Positions 1,437-9,714 of a stretch of 64,000 bases of DNA are shown here, one piece after another. The stretch covers positions 4,854 through 68,853 of the forward strand of contig JBFLYD010000009.1 of assembly GCA_040756905.1 (NCBI GenBank). Direction: 5' to 3'. Origin of the DNA: Acidobacteriota bacterium. Lineage in GTDB: Bacteria > Acidobacteriota > Aminicenantia > JBFLYD01. Made by a program: the position numbers and the translations under genes. The notes under the pieces are model-generated. The model had not been told where the DNA came from. It was given only the letters and a program-made list of their open reading frames with translations, and made no database searches. The number at the start of each line of letters is the position of its first letter. Positions within the stretch are counted from its first letter, which is position 1.

Positions 1437-3134
1437 TCAATTTATCGATATAATCCATGGCATTATCGCCAATGCTTTTGAATAAACATTCGATTTTAAA
1501 AATGGGATTGCAAAGAAATGTTTCAAATCTACATTGATTAGATGAGTCTCCCCCTCTGAAGAGTTGAAAATAAGCTGCCAGAGAGTTTTTCTTTTTGGAA
1601 AAAATTCAATAACTACCGATTCCTCTTTTGGGATCTTTGCTTTGGATTTTGCAATCTCAATGGCTTTCAAAACACCACCCACCTCATCTATCAATTTTAA
1701 TTTTTTTGCCTGTTCTCCTGTCCAGACTCTTCCCTTTCCAATTTTATCGATCTCATCTATTTTCATATTTCTTGATGTAGAGACCCTTTTCAGGAATGTT
1801 TCATAAATCCATTTCATTTCTTCGATTATTTTCCCTTTTTCTTCTGGTGAAAATTCCCTGTAATCAGAGAAAAGCTCTGCATATTTTCCTCTACTTATGA
1901 TTTCTTTTGTTATTCCTATTTTATCGTAGAATCCCTTCAGATTGAATTTCCCGTAGATAACCCCGATGGAACCGGTAAAAGACCAAGGCTGACTTATAAT
2001 GTAGTCAGAACCAAGCGATATCCAGTATCCTCCAGAGCCCGCTAAATCAGACATTGATACGATGAGAGGCTTTTTTTCTTTTAAAGTAAGCTCAGCCCTT
2101 AAAATTATATCAGAAGCAATGGCTGAGCCTCCTGGAGAGTCAATCCTTAATACTACTGCTTTTATGGATTTATCATCTTTTACCCTATTTAAAATCTTTG
2201 TCATAGTATCCGATCCAATAAGGGGGGCACCGAAAATAGAATCCTTTCCACTTTCTCCTATATCGATAGCACCAAGCCCATAAACAATTGCTATTTTCTT
2301 TTTTCCCGTTAGAGGAAATTTAACTTTTGAATATTTCTTTATATCAATGAAGTCAAACCCTTCTTTTTTTATTTCGTTCAGGATTTCATCCTCATAGGCT
2401 AATCTATCGATAAGTCCATTTTTTAATGTATCTTCAGGAAGATATGGTCCCTCCTCTATTATCTTTTTTATTTCTTTTAAGTCTTTTTTCCTTGAGTTAG
2501 ATATTTCCCTTAGGAATCTTTCATAATAATCATCTAAAAGAGAATTTGCCATTTCTCTATGGGCGTTGGTGAACTTATTTTCAGTAAAAGTATTGGATGC
2601 TGTTTTATAATCTCCTATGTGTTCGAGCTCTGCTTTTATTCCAAGCTTATCAAGAGTATTTTTGAAAAAGATGTATTCTGATGCGAATCCCTTTATCAGT
2701 AGCAATCCAGTGGGCAAAAGATTTACTTTTGAGCAAGAAGCTATAAAATATTCAAGATTTCCTCCTGTCTCGAGGAAAGTTACAATTTTTTTTCCAGAGC
2801 TTGAAAAATCTTCAAGATAATCTCTTATTTCCTGGGCTTTTGCCCATCCAATTCTTAAAGGATATATCTTTAGATAGATTCCTTTAATTTTTTTGTCATC
2901 CTTTGCTTTTTTTATGTTGACCAGTAAATCCTTTATTGTAAGAGGTTTTTCAAATATAGGAAATCCTCCATAATCGATTATTTCTTCAGGAATGTCACCG
3001 CCAATGCTTATAATAAGGTAGCTATCTTTTTTTACCGTTACCTCTTCCTTTAAGCCAATTATTATGAATGATGCGATTGTAGCAATTATTATGATAAAAA
3101 ATATCAAAAAAATTATTAAAATTGGTTTCCTCAT
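1437..3134 (-). CDS. sppA: Signal peptide peptidase SppA (protease IV, 67K type).
   Basis: 565 aa with an N-terminal TM segment and two ClpP/crotonase-like halves. Motifs include VLRIDSPGGSAIASD and SMSDLAGSGGYWISLGSDYIISQPWSFTGSIGV. Confidence 0.8.
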   Translation of the reverse strand: MRKPILIIFLIFFIIIIATIASFIIIGLKEEVTVKKDSYLIISIGGDIPEEIIDYGGFPIFEKPLTIKDLLVNIKKAKDDKKIKGIYLKIYPLRIGWAKAQEIRDYLEDFSSSGKKIVTFLETGGNLEYFIASCSKVNLLPTGLLLIKGFASEYIFFKNTLDKLGIKAELEHIGDYKTASNTFTENKFTNAHREMANSLLDDYYERFLREISNSRKKDLKEIKKIIEEGPYLPEDTLKNGLIDRLAYEDEILNEIKKEGFDFIDIKKYSKVKFPLTGKKKIAIVYGLGAIDIGESGKDSIFGAPLIGSDTMTKILNRVKDDKSIKAVVLRIDSPGGSAIASDIILRAELTLKEKKPLIVSMSDLAGSGGYWISLGSDYIISQPWSFTGSIGVIYGKFNLKGFYDKIGITKEIISRGKYAELFSDYREFSPEEKGKIIEEMKWIYETFLKRVSTSRNMKIDEIDKIGKGRVWTGEQAKKLKLIDEVGGVLKAIEIAKSKAKIPKEESVVIEFFPKRKTLWQLIFNSSEGETHLINVDLKHFFAIPFLKSNVYSKALAIMPWIISIN

Positions 3135-3396
3135 CCAATCCTCCTTTATAAAATATTTTTTAAAAGATAATTCACCAGCTTCCTCTTTTTTATTAGAGTT
3201 TTTAGCAATTAATTATTCTAATTTATTAATACGAATATTTCCATCAAAAGTTTTTCTTACTGACATGATTGAAAAGACTTAACTTCTTTTCTATTTGATT
3301 AATTTATTTATGCAATTAAGTTTATGATGTTAAAAATCAAAGCTGCATTATTTCATTTTCATTTGAGAAAACCCTCAAATAAGCCAGGCACAAGGG

Positions 3397-3514
3397 GGGT
3401 CAGATCTTCATTATTCATTATTTAAATATTTCATTAATCGGATTCAATGTATTTTCCAAAAAAATATGATAAAAAATAATAATTAATTTTAAACGAATAA
3501 TGAAGATCTGACCC
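3397..3514. repeat. 118-bp element bounded by a perfect 20-bp inverted repeat (gggtcagatcttcattattc / gaataatgaagatctgaccc) around a 78-bp AT-rich core.
   Basis: Arms read directly from the sequence at 3397-3416 and 3495-3514. Lies intergenic between sppA and ubiE. Confidence 0.5.
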
Positions 3515-3695
3515 TATAAACATTGGCCTCTTATGACCCTATAATAAACATAAACACCCAGATTGTCCTCTTATTTAAACCAGGGTTTTTGGTTTTCCCT
3601 TCCGGTTTAGAGAGACTGTTTTAATTTCTCCTGTTCGAATCTTTACTTGATTTATTGTAATTTGGTATCCTCTTAGTCTTTGTAAATTTAGAAAG

Positions 3696-4388
3696 ATGAG
3701 AAAGAAAAAAACTGATGAATTGTTTTCTCTAATTGCTGATAAGTATGACCTTTTAAACCATATCCTGAGTCTGAATGCTGATAGAAGGTGGAGAAAGAAA
3801 CTGGCAGAACTTTTAAGCTTTTCTAAATCTTACAAAATACTGGATGTTTGTGCAGGAACATGTGACTTAGCTATTACCCTTGCTAAAAAAGGTCCAAAAG
3901 CAAAGATTATAGGAATTGATATATCTGAAGATATGTTAAAAATAGGCTTGAGAAAGATAGACAACTTAAACCTTTGTCAAAATATAACCCTTCAGAGAAG
4001 TGATGCTTTTAATCTTCCTTTCAGAGATGAAACCTTTGATGCAGTGACCATTGGCTTTGGCTTGAGGAATTTTCTTGATGTAAAAAAAGGCATAGAAGAA
4101 ATGATACGAGTGCTAAAGAAAGGTGGCGTGCTTTTGATCCTTGAGCTCACACTTCCTGAACAAAGTTTTTTAGCAAAAGTTTATAAATTCTATCTTAAAA
4201 AGATTGTCCCATTAATAGGAGGTTTAATTTCTGGCTCAAAAGCTTCCTATGAATATCTTTCATCATCAATAATAGGTTTTTTCGATCGGGAAGAAATTAT
4301 TGAGTTATTAAAAGAAGAGAAATTAAAAAATATTTATTTAAAAAATTTAAGCTCTGGAATCGCCTGCATCCTTAAAGGCGAGAAATAA
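3696..4388 (+). CDS. ubiE: Demethylmenaquinone/ubiquinone C-methyltransferase (UbiE/MenG family, class I SAM methyltransferase).
   Basis: The N-terminal YDLLNHILSLNADRRWRKK signature is characteristic of UbiE/MenG. The SAM motif ILDVCAGTCDL follows, with a motif II/III region. Confidence 0.75.
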   Translation: MRKKKTDELFSLIADKYDLLNHILSLNADRRWRKKLAELLSFSKSYKILDVCAGTCDLAITLAKKGPKAKIIGIDISEDMLKIGLRKIDNLNLCQNITLQRSDAFNLPFRDETFDAVTIGFGLRNFLDVKKGIEEMIRVLKKGGVLLILELTLPEQSFLAKVYKFYLKKIVPLIGGLISGSKASYEYLSSSIIGFFDREEIIELLKEEKLKNIYLKNLSSGIACILKGEK

Positions 4389-4814
4389 ATTATTCATTTT
4401 ATTCAGTTTTGTATTTCTATTTTTTTATTTTTTCATCGTTTGCCTTACTTGTGACCCATTTTTACCTCACAAAAACATGATGCAATTTTCTTCTACATCT
4501 ATTAATTATTTTAAAAATATTTCTTTTCTGCTAAATTCCCTAAATTTATAGATATTGAGAAGGATTTTTCTATTCTTTTAAAAGCATATGAATATGCACA
4601 AAATTCCTATAATTTCTTATAAATTAAAGCTCAGATTATCAACAAAGTCTGTGGGTGCCTGAAAAATAAAGTTGTATTCAAAAATTATATTTTAGAGAGA
4701 ATATTGGAAAATGTTCTTCGCATTGCCAAATTCGGCGAAGAGAATTTTAATGATAGTGTTGCATCTAATAGCGTAAGATATTATCCCCGGCTTATTTTTA
4801 ATTCTTTAATTATA

Positions 4815-5369
4815 TCATCTCAACCTTTTTAATACCGCTTTTTGGATTACGGAAAATCTGTCTTTAGCCATAAAATCTTTGTATAAACTTTCTGTTAAGG
4901 AGCCTTCTGGATAATTGGTTTTCTCTTGTATAGCCATAAGCTCTGTCACGACAAGCAGGAATTCTACAGAAAATTCTCCCACTTTATCTAATTCTTTGAA
5001 TGGTTCGATATGCTCTGCTTTGAAAAACTGAAGGCTTGGTGGAAATGAATTTACAGGTTTTATTTGACTGAGCATTGCCAAGATATGGTCTTTAAGTTTC
5101 AAAGTTAATAAAGAACTATGAGCATGTTTGACATACATCTCTACAATTAAGTGAACATGAGCGGGGGTGCGTTCTCGTTTGTTTGGCTCTTGGAATTTTA
5201 CAATGAAATCGTAAGGGGATTCTGACTTTCTGCCAGGGTAAACTGCAATTTTAATATTTGTTTTTGTAGTATAAACGACTTCATCTTCTTGAAAGCGTCT
5301 AACTCTCCAAATTTTATAAGATGACTTTATGTAATAGTAAATTGCTACCAATAATTTAAATAATTTCAA
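4815..5369 (-). CDS. Hypothetical protein, last gene of the methyltransferase cassette; candidate nuclease.
   Basis: 184-aa ORF whose start overlaps the upstream stop by 4 nt. Possible PD-(D/E)xK-like pattern PYDFIV...HLIVEMYVKH. No firm family recognised. Confidence 0.4.
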   Translation of the reverse strand: MKLFKLLVAIYYYIKSSYKIWRVRRFQEDEVVYTTKTNIKIAVYPGRKSESPYDFIVKFQEPNKRERTPAHVHLIVEMYVKHAHSSLLTLKLKDHILAMLSQIKPVNSFPPSLQFFKAEHIEPFKELDKVGEFSVEFLLVVTELMAIQEKTNYPEGSLTESLYKDFMAKDRFSVIQKAVLKRLR

Positions 5370-5566
5370 TATTTTACCTCCTCTTGTACGGATGAGGGTG
5401 GACAGACCTCAATTTCTGCTCCACATTCATAACAAAACTCGACATTAAAAGTCATGCTACCAGGAATAGGGCACTCATCTAAGTCAATTCGAGATTTACA
5501 TACAGGGCATCTAATATACCATGTACCATTCTTCCTTTCTTTTGCCTTTGCTTTTCTTACTCTCAT
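5366..5566 (-). CDS. Small 4-Cys zinc-ribbon protein.
   Basis: 66 aa with CPVC...C...CYEC...C. Translationally coupled (4-nt overlaps) between the methyltransferase and the 184-aa ORF. Confidence 0.45.
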   Translation of the reverse strand: MRVRKAKAKERKNGTWYIRCPVCKSRIDLDECPIPGSMTFNVEFCYECGAEIEVCPPSSVQEEVKY

Positions 5567-7164
5567 TTTACCACCTCATAAATAAGTAGATATTGATGTG
5601 TTATTTTCAAATTATTATCTTTTTCTACTTCTTTGATTTCATTATCAGTTTTTTGTTCTTCTTGAGCTACAACTACAATTTCTTTTAACCATAAATTGTC
5701 AGAGACGATTAGATCTACTATTCTTTTGCCAAGAGGTTCAATAAATCCATCCATTCTTACATCCTGCGTTTGGACTACTAAAAATCCACCTTTGTTAACA
5801 TTAGGTAAGCTTTGTATCACGGTCTGTCTTATTTCTTCTAAATAGTGCTCAATGTTTGGCTTTAAAGGGTTATTGTTCAAAAATGTTGCTTTTATAAAAA
5901 GCAGGTCTATCTTCTTTTTCCCATCTTCTTTAGTAAAAGATGCCTGATTTTCAAAATTGACATTAAAATTTATAGTTGAGTATTTACCTCCAATTGAATA
6001 CCTATTAATTACATTTTTGTTTAAACGCTCTTCCAAATCTCTCTCAGGAAATAGCCATACCGTGGTAGTTTCAAGTTCATCTATTTTTTTCAAGGGTATT
6101 TTTTCAAATGCAGGAATAACACCTCCATAATCTAAGCTCTCTTCTCTTAAGGCTAAGGAGGGGGCAAGTGACTCGGGTTTTTCAAAAATTGGTAGATATT
6201 CGTGGGCCAAAAGGAGGAAATTATATTTTGTGCTTTTTTCATACCAAAATCCAGTAGTTTTACAATTATGCTGGCGTTTAATCACCAATTCCCTTATTTT
6301 AAACCCTGCTTCTAAAAAAACATTTATTGTTTGAAATCCTATGGGAATAACATGTTTATGTTTTCTGGTATCTCCGATAAGAATTGCGCATTTTCCGCTA
6401 GGTTTAAGGACACGGTAACTTTCACTTGCAACTTTTTTTATCTCCTTTAAAAAATCTTTAACACCAAGCTTTGATAAGTCACCTTCAACGCTAGAACTAT
6501 AATTAATGATTCCTGCATAAGGAGGGTGAGCACAAATAAGGTCAATACTATTATCTGATATATGAGAGAGAGACCTTGCATCACTTACTGAAACATCGGG
6601 TTCATAGATGGAGAAAGGAAATAGTGTTGTTGGAGGTGAAAATTTTAAATTTTCTAAGGTTAAACCTATACATGCTGGGTTGATGTCTCTAGCTATGCAT
6701 CTTCTACCAAGTAACTTCGCCTCTACTGCTGTAGTTCCACCTCCGACGAAATAATCCAAAACAATATCTCCAGGTTTTGAATATTTCAAGATTACATTCC
6801 TTGGTATGTACGGCGCCCAGTTTCCTCTATATCTTCCATCATGCGTTGCCCAATCTCCTCTTTGTTTAAAACTCCAAACAGTTGTAGTATCTTCTCTAAA
6901 ATTTTTAGGTTCCCAATATTTTATCTTCCTGAGTTTTGTGAGAACCGAAATATTGATTCCATATGCTTCGGTGATAATTTCTTCCAGTTGTCTGAAAGTA
7001 ATTCCAAACAATGTGCCAATTTCTGGATCTGGTATTCCTTTCTCTTTCGCCTTCAATACTGATTCCTTAAATTCTTTTTCACTATGTTGAGAACGTATAT
7101 GCTCCCCTAAATTTCCATAATGCGGCTTCTTGCATATAGGACATTCGCTTGTTAATTTTTGCAT
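5563..7164 (-). CDS. DNA methyltransferase of the N6-adenine/N4-cytosine family (PF01555-like) with an N-terminal zinc finger, an HTH region and a C-terminal degenerate methyltransferase-like module.
   Basis: The AdoMet motif VLDYFVGGGTTAVEAKLLGRRCIARDINP (FxGxG) is preceded by TTTVWSF...NWAPYIP. A catalytic-type IDLICAHPPYAG (xPPY) motif and VLKPSGKCAILIGD follow. The N-terminus carries a CPICKKPHYGNLGEHIRSQH C2H2-like finger. Confidence 0.75.
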   Translation of the reverse strand: MQKLTSECPICKKPHYGNLGEHIRSQHSEKEFKESVLKAKEKGIPDPEIGTLFGITFRQLEEIITEAYGINISVLTKLRKIKYWEPKNFREDTTTVWSFKQRGDWATHDGRYRGNWAPYIPRNVILKYSKPGDIVLDYFVGGGTTAVEAKLLGRRCIARDINPACIGLTLENLKFSPPTTLFPFSIYEPDVSVSDARSLSHISDNSIDLICAHPPYAGIINYSSSVEGDLSKLGVKDFLKEIKKVASESYRVLKPSGKCAILIGDTRKHKHVIPIGFQTINVFLEAGFKIRELVIKRQHNCKTTGFWYEKSTKYNFLLLAHEYLPIFEKPESLAPSLALREESLDYGGVIPAFEKIPLKKIDELETTTVWLFPERDLEERLNKNVINRYSIGGKYSTINFNVNFENQASFTKEDGKKKIDLLFIKATFLNNNPLKPNIEHYLEEIRQTVIQSLPNVNKGGFLVVQTQDVRMDGFIEPLGKRIVDLIVSDNLWLKEIVVVAQEEQKTDNEIKEVEKDNNLKITHQYLLIYEVVK

Positions 7165-7706
7165 TTTAATTATAAATATTGCGATTCTATTTAAATACTT
7201 TCATTGCTCGCTGTTTTACCCAATTTATTTATATTTAAACAATTTAGAATACATTTCTTTTTTATAAATATCCACATTAATTTTTTTACTAACTTTATCT
7301 CCCCATGCATCTTCTGCCATACCTTTTCTTTATTTTTATATAATTATTCCTGATTAAAAATCAATTTTTTCTCATTGTCGTTTTTTTAAATCTATTAGCT
7401 CTATCCTCTTTTCTTATACTAAACAGACTAATTAAAAATTAACTAGCCAGCACATTGTTTAAATCTATAGTATAATTACACTGAAGATTTATATTTTTGT
7501 TCTTATATAAATATAAAGCTCAGACATAAAATCATTGTTATAAATTTTACATAATTTTGTTGAAATTATGATAGATTGATACTAAACTCCTTAAAAAAAG
7601 AAAAAATAGTATTGAAGTGATTTTTCTATACTTTTTAAGTTCTTTTAAATTCCTTAAAATTCCTATGATTCCCTACAAATTAATCACACTCATTATGTAT
7701 ATGTCT

Positions 7707-7799: not shown

Positions 7800-8315
7800 T
7801 CATGGCTTATTTGTTTCAATCAAAACCTTTCGATAAAGGTCATAAATAGCGTTAATTATAGGTTTCAATTCATATTTATCTCCTCTAAAAGTAAGCGCCC
7901 AAGTCGTATCTTCAAAATTACGAAGAAAATCCTCTGTATCTATTCCAGCTATCATGTTAGATAGACCAATATTTGAATCAACAAAATTATGTCTTTTAGA
8001 TGACATGATCCAAGTTTCTAATCTTTCATCAAAATGTTCAAAATGATTCCTAAAATTCCTTGGATGTATAGGAGAATTATCTTCGATACCTAAACTTTTT
8101 CTCAATTCTTCTCCCCTTTTTTGAGATTCTTTTTTTGATGGCCAAAAAATTTTAGATATATTACCAATAGCTACTAAGAAATTTTGTATCGCATACCAAA
8201 CTATATCGGAATTAATGTTTAATAATCCAGATTTTATTTCATCTATAGCAGTAATTGCAAATTTACATTGTCGCTCAATTTCTATCAGAAATATTTTTAA
8301 AACCATTTTTTCCAT
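7800..8315 (-). CDS. Hypothetical protein with a HEPN-like Rx4H motif (possible RNase, abortive-infection type).
   Basis: 171 aa. HPRNFRNHFEHFDERLE contains RNFRNH and RNHFEH, matching Rx4-6H. An isolated gene flanked by long AT-rich spacers. Confidence 0.4.
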   Translation of the reverse strand: MEKMVLKIFLIEIERQCKFAITAIDEIKSGLLNINSDIVWYAIQNFLVAIGNISKIFWPSKKESQKRGEELRKSLGIEDNSPIHPRNFRNHFEHFDERLETWIMSSKRHNFVDSNIGLSNMIAGIDTEDFLRNFEDTTWALTFRGDKYELKPIINAIYDLYRKVLIETNKP

Positions 8316-8422: not shown

Positions 8423-9133
8423 CTAAAGAAGTTTTCCCAGATGCATTTCACTAGGATATTTAAATATTGGTTTAATTTTAAGTTCTAAAATAGGATGATC
8501 TGGACACGTAATTTCGATTATGCCCCCGGCACCTTGTGGCGTATCTATCTTCCCAAACGCTATGCCCTGACCATTTCCATCATAAAATTTTCCTTGGAAC
8601 TGAACGCGGTTGTCCTTAACTCTAATCTGTAAAACAATATCTCCTGTTTCATCCTTCACTTCTAAAGCATCCTTTGTAAAATTTCGATCAAATGCCTTTT
8701 CCTTTTTTATCTTCCATTCATTAGCTAGAAGTTCTGCAACCACCTCACCCTTTTTATTTCGGATTATGGTAGAAATCTTTAAATTCCCATTTTCTGTCCA
8801 GATAGTAAGACAATTATCTTCAAAGATTTTAAATAAAGGTGATCCCTCAGGGCCTCTATAGTCAAGAATTGCGCCTGAATCACCAAATTCAAATTGAGGG
8901 TATTGCTTTTCTTGCGGGTCTAATAAGATCGTTTTTGATTTATTTTCCAATTTGCCTGCATACTTTGAGATCTCTTTATCCATATATTCCTTTCTCTGAA
9001 TAACAAATTGAATAATTGCTCCTAAAATTATCAGGAATACCATAGCGATTGTGAGCCATGAAGGGATTACCCTCGGTTTAAGCCAGCCGATAATTGCAAT
9101 AATTGCCATGATTACTATTAATAAATATTTCAT
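8423..9133 (-). CDS. Membrane-anchored hypothetical protein.
   Basis: 236 aa with two N-terminal TM helices (LLIVIMAIIAIIGWL and LTIAMVFLIILGAIIQFVI) followed by a globular domain. No family recognised. Confidence 0.5.
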   Translation of the reverse strand: MKYLLIVIMAIIAIIGWLKPRVIPSWLTIAMVFLIILGAIIQFVIQRKEYMDKEISKYAGKLENKSKTILLDPQEKQYPQFEFGDSGAILDYRGPEGSPLFKIFEDNCLTIWTENGNLKISTIIRNKKGEVVAELLANEWKIKKEKAFDRNFTKDALEVKDETGDIVLQIRVKDNRVQFQGKFYDGNGQGIAFGKIDTPQGAGGIIEITCPDHPILELKIKPIFKYPSEMHLGKLL

Positions 9134-9641
9134 CTTGAACTCTTCATTTTTAGGAAATAGCTTTATCTGGGTTTATATTCGAAGTGGTTCAAACATTCCT
9201 CCATTTTTGTGTTATATCCGAATTACTTTGAACAAACATTATGTCTCTCCCTTTCAAGCTATCTTTTCTTTTTTATAATATATTATTCTTTGTTAAAAAA
9301 ATCAATTTTTTTTATCATTTTTTTCAATTTCTCAACTCCGCTCTAATATGTTAAATGTAAGTATCTCTGAGTAATTGACAAAGATTGGTGAGCTAAAAGT
9401 TTTTTTACACATCCTTAGAAATTAAATTTCCTAAAATACAGTGCGGCTTCAATATAACTTTGTATATAAGGAGAAATTTCATTTATATATTTTTGATTAC
9501 TTTGTTATTTTGGAGATGGTATTGTCCTTACATACTAAAAGACCTCCTATTATCCTCCTATTTAAACACGTTGTTTTGAAAATATTTTAAAACGACAATG
9601 ATAAAATAAGCATAATTTTACTTGGTTGAAAAAATATTAAG

Positions 9642-9714
9642 TGGAGCTGAGGGGATTTGAACCCCCGACCTCATGACTGCCAGTCATGCGCGCTCCCAGC
9701 TGCGCTACAGCCCC
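9642..9714 (-). tRNA. tRNA-Ala (anticodon GGC).
   Basis: The reverse complement GGGGCTGTAGCGCAGCTGGGAGCGCGCATGACTGGCAGTCATGAGGTCGGGGGTTCAAATCCCCTCAGCTCCA folds by hand into a cloverleaf. Acceptor 7 bp, D-arm GCGC/GCGC, anticodon stem CATGA/TCATG with loop CTGGCAG, T-arm GGGGG/CCCCT with TTCAAAT. The G3:U70 Ala identity pair is present. CCA is not encoded. Confidence 0.9.

Follow-up and report, generated by a model that had tools for sequence, protein, structure and literature searches.

A methyltransferase partner protein of unmatched predicted fold as a candidate GATC-directed restriction endonuclease

The protein folds known among restriction enzymes are, to our knowledge, few. The closest described counterparts of the locus considered here are systems of the DpnII/MboI type, which target GATC, protect it by adenine methylation, and encode two separate methylases (DpnM- and DpnA-like) in addition to the nuclease. 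The half-pipe glycosylases R.PabI and R.CcoLI form a further point of comparison; the PabI family recognises GTAC, not GATC. In the PvuII and BamHI systems, a small co-transcribed ORF, placed between the other genes or preceding the restriction gene, encodes a helix-turn-helix controller (the C-protein). Chloroviruses, finally, carry the GATC system CviAI (M.CviAI A581R with A579L), which is virus-encoded and used against host DNA (PMC7248222), the virus's own GATC sites being methylated.

The window, by which we mean the whole 64-kb stretch of Acidobacteriota DNA that was analysed, carries three ORFs of interest, all on the minus strand: a 533-aa DNA methyltransferase (5563..7164; PF01555 and PADLOC MTase_II), a 66-aa zinc-ribbon protein (5366..5566; sub-threshold zinc-ribbon Pfam matches) and a 184-aa protein, P184 (4815..5369), which its context and the GATC statistics mark as a putative GATC-specific restriction endonuclease. 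In the reading that we consider likely, the P184 family consists of GATC-directed, methylation-sensitive restriction endonucleases, and the window holds a Type II module of two genes, to which the zinc ribbon is an optional addition; the type of system is classical, whereas the nuclease family appears to be new. For the window pair we infer GATC specificity, a nuclease chemistry and a dimeric state: the 533-aa enzyme would methylate GATC in the host DNA, probably at adenine N6, and P184, probably a homodimeric endonuclease, would attack incoming DNA at unmethylated GATC. The likeness to DpnII/MboI-type systems thus lies in the inferred target and in the protection by adenine methylation.

The three genes are joined by overlapping codons. 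As read from the minus strand, the methyltransferase stop and the zinc-ribbon start share ATGA (5563..5566), preceded by a GAGGTGG Shine-Dalgarno motif (5571-5577), and the zinc-ribbon stop and the P184 start share TTGA (5366..5369), with a GGAGGT Shine-Dalgarno motif (5376..5381) 6 nt upstream of the start. The translational coupling of all three genes proposed in a preliminary description of the locus is thus real, as are both 4-nt overlaps, but the second is not of the ATGA type assumed there; since the zinc-ribbon stop overlaps it as TTGA, the start codon of P184 is TTG rather than ATG, which is further supported by the conservation of residues 2-26 in homologues. The overlapping codons would set the order of expression as methylase, zinc ribbon, P184, and because the TTG start is weak, the toxic partner is expected later and in smaller amounts than the protective methylase. 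Such methylase-first expression is plausible here, as in the PvuII and BamHI systems, which likewise place a co-transcribed small ORF between the other genes or ahead of the restriction gene; in contrast to their helix-turn-helix controller, however, the product here is a zinc ribbon, and most modules dispense with it.

The catalytic core of the methyltransferase (aa 79-329; 6178..6930, minus strand; PF01555, PADLOC and blastp) matches PF01555 in permuted order (E 3e-27; 96.3 bits against a cut-off of 26.7) and the PADLOC model MTase_II PDLC03376 over the whole profile (E 3.5e-98). Motif I (DYFVGGGTT) lies N-terminal of motif IV (AHPPY); the score above the gathering threshold, the AdoMet FxGxG motif and a motif IV reading HPPY place the protein among the N6_N4 methyltransferases. 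Residues 1-75 contain a C2H2-like zinc finger at the N-terminus and an HTH-like region. At the C-terminal end, a pseudo-methyltransferase domain (aa ~363-529; 5578..6078, minus strand) is a degenerate internal duplicate of the core, 24% identical to it (blastp, E 4e-8) and devoid of the FxGxG and PPY motifs; it also matches a methylase from a gut locus (blastp, E 8e-9), and homologues of the methyltransferase show a second PF01555 match as well. Where DpnII/MboI-type systems have two separate methylases, the window has one fused, pseudo-dimeric enzyme. The second methylase of metagenomic DpnII-type GATC loci shares 54-57% identity with its core (E 1e-102 to 1e-105). Judged by sequence, the product of the 533-aa enzyme is probably G(m6A)TC.

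A scan of species-representative genomes for P184 homologues yields 80 loci, in Nitrospirota, WOR-3, Chloroflexota, Thermotogota, Planctomycetota and many other bacterial phyla, and among the archaea in Archaeoglobaceae, Thermoplasmata, Hadarchaeota, Micrarchaeota and Methanosarcinales. By tblastn, the P184 homologue has a window-methylase homologue as its neighbour in 62 of the 80, and clustering adds two more; 15 of the remainder lie at contig edges, leaving 65 assessable loci, 64 of them paired. The single exception (L051) has both genes disrupted. The arrangement is therefore not due to chance, and the conserved unit is the pair of methyltransferase and P184, not the triplet. The methylase most often lies upstream on the same strand (53 tandem loci), occasionally in divergent orientation (4), downstream on the same strand (4) or in convergent orientation (1), and beyond the pair, clustering finds no flanking gene that is shared between loci. 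The pair is thus inherited as a unit in variable orientation amid unrelated flanks, a methyltransferase with catalytic motifs adjoining the candidate nuclease, which is the pattern of a Type II system. Distant P184 relatives adjoin a short methylase that corresponds to the core alone. Partners can also be exchanged, distant family members being paired with another class of methylase: in the isolate Persephonella sp. IF05-L8 such a member ends 2 nt before a D12 Dam-like methylase, with housekeeping genes on either side, and another is fused to a Dam enzyme. In one locus (L148) a methylase and a P184-family gene sit by themselves between ruvC and ruvA.

Usually no gene separates the methylase from P184. 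In nine loci, however, the intervening gene encodes mid176, a P184 paralogue of 176-192 aa (hhalign probability 96%, E 3e-9) that retains D, H, (D/E), K and QE..NYP and is sometimes followed by another protein of ~186-190 aa. In all 24 full-length pairs compared, P184 is more conserved than the methylase (mean identity 74% versus 57%); this is unusual for a restriction enzyme and to that extent weakens the GATC-nuclease reading.

The zinc ribbon carries the cysteine pairs C20xxC23 and C45xxC48 (CPVC...CYEC), plus C32 and C55, and has only sub-threshold matches in Pfam, the best being LysW-like (E 6e-4). It is found in 13 protein clusters, compared to at least 486 for close homologues of P184, and although it always directly follows a long methylase, it is missing from most modules, occurring among the species-representative loci only in the window and in L013. 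It can also precede something else: in L172 and L175-L177 it is followed, in place of P184, by an unrelated 402-410-aa protein that has no sequence match in Pfam or the PDB. This distribution does not support the view, as it was put, that the zinc ribbon belongs integrally to the system, and the co-inheritance of the triplet is confined to a few loci (L013 and L178-L181, besides the window). No helix-turn-helix controller gene is conserved with the system either, the small ORF being this zinc ribbon of 13 clusters. It is best described as an optional insert, with a possibly regulatory role.

P184 itself has no match in Pfam, NCBIfam or PADLOC at E-values up to 1, and no meaningful one in PHROGs at E-values up to 0.1. 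Among the 120 close relatives listed, identity to P184 is 73-86%, length is ~185 aa, and every source name reads 'hypothetical protein'. An exhaustive profile search extends the family to 224 representatives at 50% identity, and one distant subfamily alone comprises 1437 clusters; members are ~150-200 residues long and unannotated. P184 has no match in the plasmid and phage collections of GenBank, nor does an alignment of its close homologues find any in IMG/VR. Pfam (2025 copy), NCBIfam 20, PADLOC 2.0 and the PDB (to April 2026) contain no entry for the family, and in the literature on GATC systems, GATC-free phages, the co-occurring DUF7004 and novel folds, where R.MjaIII is identified as MJ0600 (PMC2615612), we found no description of it; within these sources it thus appears undescribed as a nuclease family.

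The structure of P184 is predicted with pLDDT 75 from close homologues only, and with pLDDT 94.2 and pTM 0.87 from a diverse alignment. The model shows a three-stranded sheet (residues 30-34, 40-45 and 55-60) packed on seven helices (2-26, 71-84, 86-102, 118-129, 135-152, 158-165 and 171-183). Fold searches with it find no neighbour among the solved structures in the PDB, so that the search for a nuclease fold proposed in the preliminary description has produced a confident model but no match to a nuclease-like fold or any other. A sequence search of the PDB returns only CFAP141 (E 0.038), which is spurious. The resemblance to PD-(D/E)xK nucleases that had been read into the segments YDFIV (residues 53-57) and LIVEMYVKH (74-82) is not supported by the model: the superfamily core (alpha-beta-beta-beta-alpha-beta, whose second and third strands bear D...(D/E)xK) is absent, E77 and K81 lie on the alpha-helix 71-84, and neither the fold searches nor the superfamily profiles in Pfam, NCBIfam, PADLOC and PHROGs give a match. 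Nor is P184 unusually small for a restriction enzyme, as had been thought, since R.CcoLI is a 193-residue chain in the PDB.

The enzymes of known systems offer no closer model. Although genes neighbouring P184 relatives match the DpnII (PF04556, E 1e-110) and MutH/Sau3AI (PF02976, E 3e-6) profiles, P184 matches neither, and it differs from DpnII in sequence and fold and by being ~100 residues shorter. Against the half-pipe enzymes (2dvy, 7cfa) its structural scores are not significant; no motifs are shared, and P184 is mostly helical, with three strands only. That P184 hits GATC by a non-hydrolytic chemistry, as an R.PabI-like glycosylase, or acts only with a second subunit such as mid176, is something we regard as quite improbable. 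The lack of any known nuclease fold or family weighs against the GATC-nuclease reading as such.

What the family does conserve are G46, D54, H71, K81, L127, L144 and E149, all near-invariant, and the motifs RTPxHxHxx(V)(D/E)xxxK and QEKTNYP. The polar residues among the former, D54, H71, K81 and E149, support the GATC-nuclease reading, as they are kept even in the paralogous mid176. One family member is fused to a D12 Dam methylase and one to a TIR domain; the TIR fusion would also fit a sensor or a DNA-binding role and thus counts against a nuclease. DUF7004, which co-occurs with the family in some loci, is not a relative (hhalign probability 1%).

The distant subfamily, ~27% identical to P184, was sampled in 58 metagenome loci. 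Here too a methylase lies within three genes in almost every case (55 of 58), being D12 Dam-like, of the beta class of N6_N4 enzymes, or of the permuted type seen in the window. In as many as 37 of the 58 loci, however, a nuclease can be recognised as well, belonging to DpnII (PF04556) or PDDEXK_11 or resembling MutH; the genes typically run Dam-like methylase, P184-family member, DpnII, permuted methylase, so that relatives of P184 are physically embedded in operons of the DpnII/MboI type. In gut loci with a nuclease of their own, the P184 relative would either be a further restriction enzyme that duplicates the specificity of the first, or play an accessory part.

These co-resident GATC-type nucleases are the strongest argument for a different reading, namely that P184 is a non-catalytic accessory, a DNA binder or regulator that senses GATC or its methylation state in the manner of a controller protein. 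The position typical of the gut loci, just upstream of the DpnII-family nuclease, is the usual one for a controller gene, and the lack of a nuclease fold, the TIR fusion and a locus in which a broken methylase is tolerated (L019, below) all fit. We nonetheless consider it unlikely. In some 60 two-gene modules and in the Persephonella isolate, the family member is the sole nuclease candidate, yet the hosts are strongly depleted in GATC, and such modules leave a regulator no restriction gene to regulate; L148, too, contains a methylase and the family member alone; the residues that are invariant across the family are D, H, K and E, not a basic DNA-binding patch; and a harmless binder would not account for the lack of GATC in every phage carrier, as described below.

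Avoidance of the recognition site in exposed genomes is characteristic of Type II systems, and its occurrence in the hosts supports the restriction-endonuclease reading. Relative to expectation under a second-order Markov model, the window contains 106 GATC sites for 240 expected (O/E 0.44), only CTAG being lower. In the flanks of 59 module loci, with the module itself excluded, GATC is the most depleted 4-bp palindrome (681 of 1828 expected, O/E 0.37), beyond CTAG (0.43), GGCC (0.46) and the others (0.64-0.98), and it is among the three lowest in 38 of these loci. For comparison, the flanks of loci with bona fide DpnII-type nucleases show an O/E of 0.53 (296 of 560), and the flanks of the Persephonella locus 0.05 (2 of 39). 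One locus (L087) shows no depletion, with a ratio of 0.96.

The distant subfamily extends into phages, with 148 relatives in IMG/VR, on contigs of up to 309 kb; the conserved D, H, D, K and E are retained in these proteins. The 55 non-identical phage loci that carry a family member (431 kb) contain a single GATC site where ~1280 are expected, the other 4-bp palindromes ranging from 0.22 to 1.03. A methylase lies within two genes in only 8 of these 55 loci; carriers without a nearby methylase have 1 site for 1064 expected, those with an adjacent one 0 for 216. As a control, 80 loci of one phage group were fetched via their sigma-factor gene (at least 71% identity). The 18 carriers among them have 1 site for 754 expected, which falls in L293, where the copy of the gene is a 76-aa fragment; the 62 non-carriers have 594 for 2669, distributed such that 28 loci have none and 34 have 3-43 each. 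This site in the fragment-bearing locus aside, 18 of 18 carriers are free of GATC, compared to 28 of 62 non-carriers (Fisher p = 1.3e-4, for loci that are not phylogenetically independent). Carriage of a family member thus implies a GATC-free phage genome, but the converse fails; since 28 phages are free of GATC without the gene in the fetched locus, avoidance in this group also has another cause.

Within this phage group, the gene lies in a hypervariable slot flanked by an SbcC-like gene and by a conserved ~175-aa gene. Elsewhere the same slot holds methylase-plus-small-ORF pairs or large methylase-containing proteins, and members of the group that are rich in GATC usually have a beta-class methylase there. 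As in the chlorovirus CviAI system, with which we compare them by description, a virus would thus carry a GATC-directed activity, in this case in a hot spot for restriction-modification cargo; in contrast to the chloroviruses, which methylate their own GATC sites, most phage carriers of P184 homologues lack a methylase and have rid themselves of GATC. The phage data would also be explained by a methyl-dependent, DpnI-like activity, but in cells the tight linkage of the family to GATC methylases is incompatible with this.

The 28 GATC-free non-carriers, together with the undepleted L087, could be taken to mean that the link to GATC is coincidental, the module having some other specificity and the depletion stemming from unrelated GATC systems common in hosts and phages. 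This is very hard to reconcile with the remaining observations, and we consider it the least probable of the alternatives: the methylase core is close kin to methylases embedded in loci with DpnII (PF04556), distant family members adjoin D12 Dam-like methylases, the depletion in the flanks of the 59 module loci exceeds even that of CTAG, and the near-total absence from phage genomes holds across carriers from several unrelated phage neighbourhoods.

The module in the window has the marks of a mobile unit. It is bracketed by an imperfect direct repeat of ~125 nt, whose left copy (4503..4627, plus strand) has a 65-nt core of 74% identity and whose right copy (7552..7683, plus strand; found by local alignment) lies upstream of the methyltransferase. 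The local alignment score of 37 compares to 17.7 +/- 2.5 for shuffles (maximum 29) and to 15.0 +/- 2.2 for 95 controls from the real window (maximum 23). Long target duplications, which these repeats resemble, have been reported for mobile restriction-modification units. The tRNA-Ala gene at 9641-9714 was considered as an integration site and discarded; no repeat of the tRNA end is found, and the module has its own flanking repeat. Taken together, the mobile pair, the depletion of GATC in hosts, and phage copies that occur without a methylase only in GATC-free DNA make P184 very probably the restriction partner of the methyltransferase, as had been conjectured.

Disruptions of the module bear on the same question. 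In at least eight loci, a cassette replaces the 3' part of the methylase gene together with the first ~55 codons of P184, and this joint removal supports the GATC-nuclease reading. Two kinds of cassette protein occur: one has 325 aa and a C-terminus that is NucS_C/Mrr_cat-like, the other 258 aa and a weak N-terminal winged-helix (Forkhead) match. Behind the cassette protein there follows a CxC zinc ribbon of ~60 aa, without evident sequence similarity to the zinc ribbon in the window. Each truncated copy of P184 is closest to a different full-length protein, and the insertions are thus independent and recurrent. For this reason, too, the low dN/dS of 0.08 in the truncated copies, which are not monophyletic, predates the truncation and does not mark them as a new module with a function of its own. 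For winged-helix nuclease fusions, Type IV activity that depends on Gm6ATC has been demonstrated (PMC11037411); if the cassettes are of this type, a GATC methylase would be incompatible with them and would have to go, and a viable insertion would also have to remove the cognate nuclease.

Two loci weaken the GATC-nuclease reading in that they pair a broken methylase with a retained P184: in L019 a nonsense codon replaces the conserved Trp105 of the methylase while its P184 is unchanged at all 54 invariant positions, and L031 has a frameshifted methylase next to a P184 with the single change I56K. Either could reflect an assembly error or rescue by another methylase. A decay asymmetry, with the nuclease lost more often than the methylase, is too weak to be of use (P184 broken in 4 loci, the methylase in 2).

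There is a broader picture, to which we assign an even chance: that P184 represents an unrecognised catalytic fold of GATC restriction enzymes, distinct from the PD-(D/E)xK, HNH, GIY-YIG, PLD and half-pipe folds and with thousands of members among bacteria and archaea, and that phages purge all GATC from their genomes and use the enzyme on its own, without a methylase, against the DNA of hosts or rival phages. If true, a new fold for a very common specificity would mean a new catalytic solution and possibly a reagent, and some two thousand clusters of 'hypothetical proteins', missed by defence finders such as PADLOC, would gain a function. The prediction of total site absence from gene carriage would provide a cheap, sequence-only test for toxic site-specific enzymes. 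The data also point to an arms race over GATC, with phages that bear methylases, phages that are free of GATC and armed with the enzyme, and cassettes that repeatedly knock out both genes of the module; one cassette appears to encode a winged-helix nuclease fusion, a type with demonstrated dependence on methylated GATC.

Across the 24 loci in which both genes are full length, P184 (the 184-aa putative GATC-specific restriction endonuclease) is on average 74% identical to its window counterpart, against 57% for the methylase (533 aa in the window), and P184 is the more conserved partner in every one of these pairs; the usual pattern in restriction-modification pairs is the opposite. In the locus L019, a nonsense codon takes the place of the methylase's conserved Trp105 (about 4679), while the adjacent P184 gene (6001-6528) is intact and all its invariant positions are unchanged. 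Either the assembly is wrong here, or a second methylase rescues the loss, or the case speaks against lethality.

The methylase of the window bears a C2H2-like zinc finger and an HTH-like region at its N-terminus (6940-7164), and at its C-terminus a degenerate duplicate of the catalytic domain (5578-6078), which perhaps makes it a built-in pseudo-dimer; in its short relatives, only the core is present.

The operon of methylase, zinc ribbon and P184 is flanked by two imperfect direct repeats, each about 125 nt long (4503-4627 and 7552-7683), whose alignment score far exceeds those of both shuffled and real-sequence controls. They resemble the long target duplication that a mobile unit of about 3 kb would leave on inserting. 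Outside them, between the module and a tRNA-Ala (9641-9714), lie two ORFs on the minus strand, of 171 aa (7800-8315) and 236 aa (8423-9133), for which family searches gave no match and which are not conserved beside the module at other loci; the former has an RNHFEH motif (Rx4H, HEPN-like), the latter a hydrophobic, membrane-like segment at the N-terminus. A 23-nt inverted repeat (3397-3419 and 3492-3514; 96% complementary, with a 72-nt spacer) sits in an AT-rich region upstream of ubiE, and AGATCT is present in both its arms, giving one GATC per arm.

P184-like genes also occur in the phage group (loci gathered via a sigma-factor gene of at least 71% identity), on contigs of up to 326 kb, in a hypervariable hot spot between an SbcC-like gene and a conserved gene of about 175 aa (L262-L341, about 3000-5000 in locus coordinates). 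The hot spot contains a P184-like gene, large methylase-containing proteins, or pairs of a methylase and a small ORF; in members of this group, GATC is wholly absent, or else a β-class methylase is usually present.

In nine loci (L001, 7469-7999; also L007, L009, L010, L015, L016, L026, L030 and L040), a P184 paralogue of 176-192 aa, mid176 (hhalign probability 96%), stands between methylase and P184, sometimes followed by one more unknown protein of about 186-190 aa; at the conserved positions, mid176 retains D, H, (D/E), K and QE..NYP, and it may be a second enzyme or one half of a heterodimer. In L172 (4219-5451), L175 (4215-5423), L176 and L177, the same long methylase and a window-type zinc ribbon are followed not by P184 but by an unrelated protein of 402-410 aa, which found no match in Pfam and PDB sequence searches and may be an alternative effector; one MAG holds both L175 and the methylase-mid176-P184 locus L001. 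The family further includes two fusions, of an N-terminal P184-like domain to a C-terminal TIR domain (P0160; L171, 4408-5574), and of a D12 Dam-like methylase to a C-terminal P184-like domain (P0230).

Recurrently and independently, cassettes substitute for the 3' half of the methylase gene together with the 5' end of the P184 gene (L041, L044, L048, L049, L051, L054, L061, L063, L081 and L083). In one form the cassette codes for a protein of 325 aa whose C-terminus is NucS_C/Mrr_cat-like, in another for one of 258 aa that has a weak match to winged-helix domains; behind either comes a CxC zinc ribbon some 60 aa long. In L054 and L061, a 288-aa or 196-aa protein precedes an ORF of about 100 aa (cluster c21), which replaces the CxC zinc ribbon. 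The cassette proteins may be Type IV enzymes that depend on methyl-GATC and supplant the GATC system.
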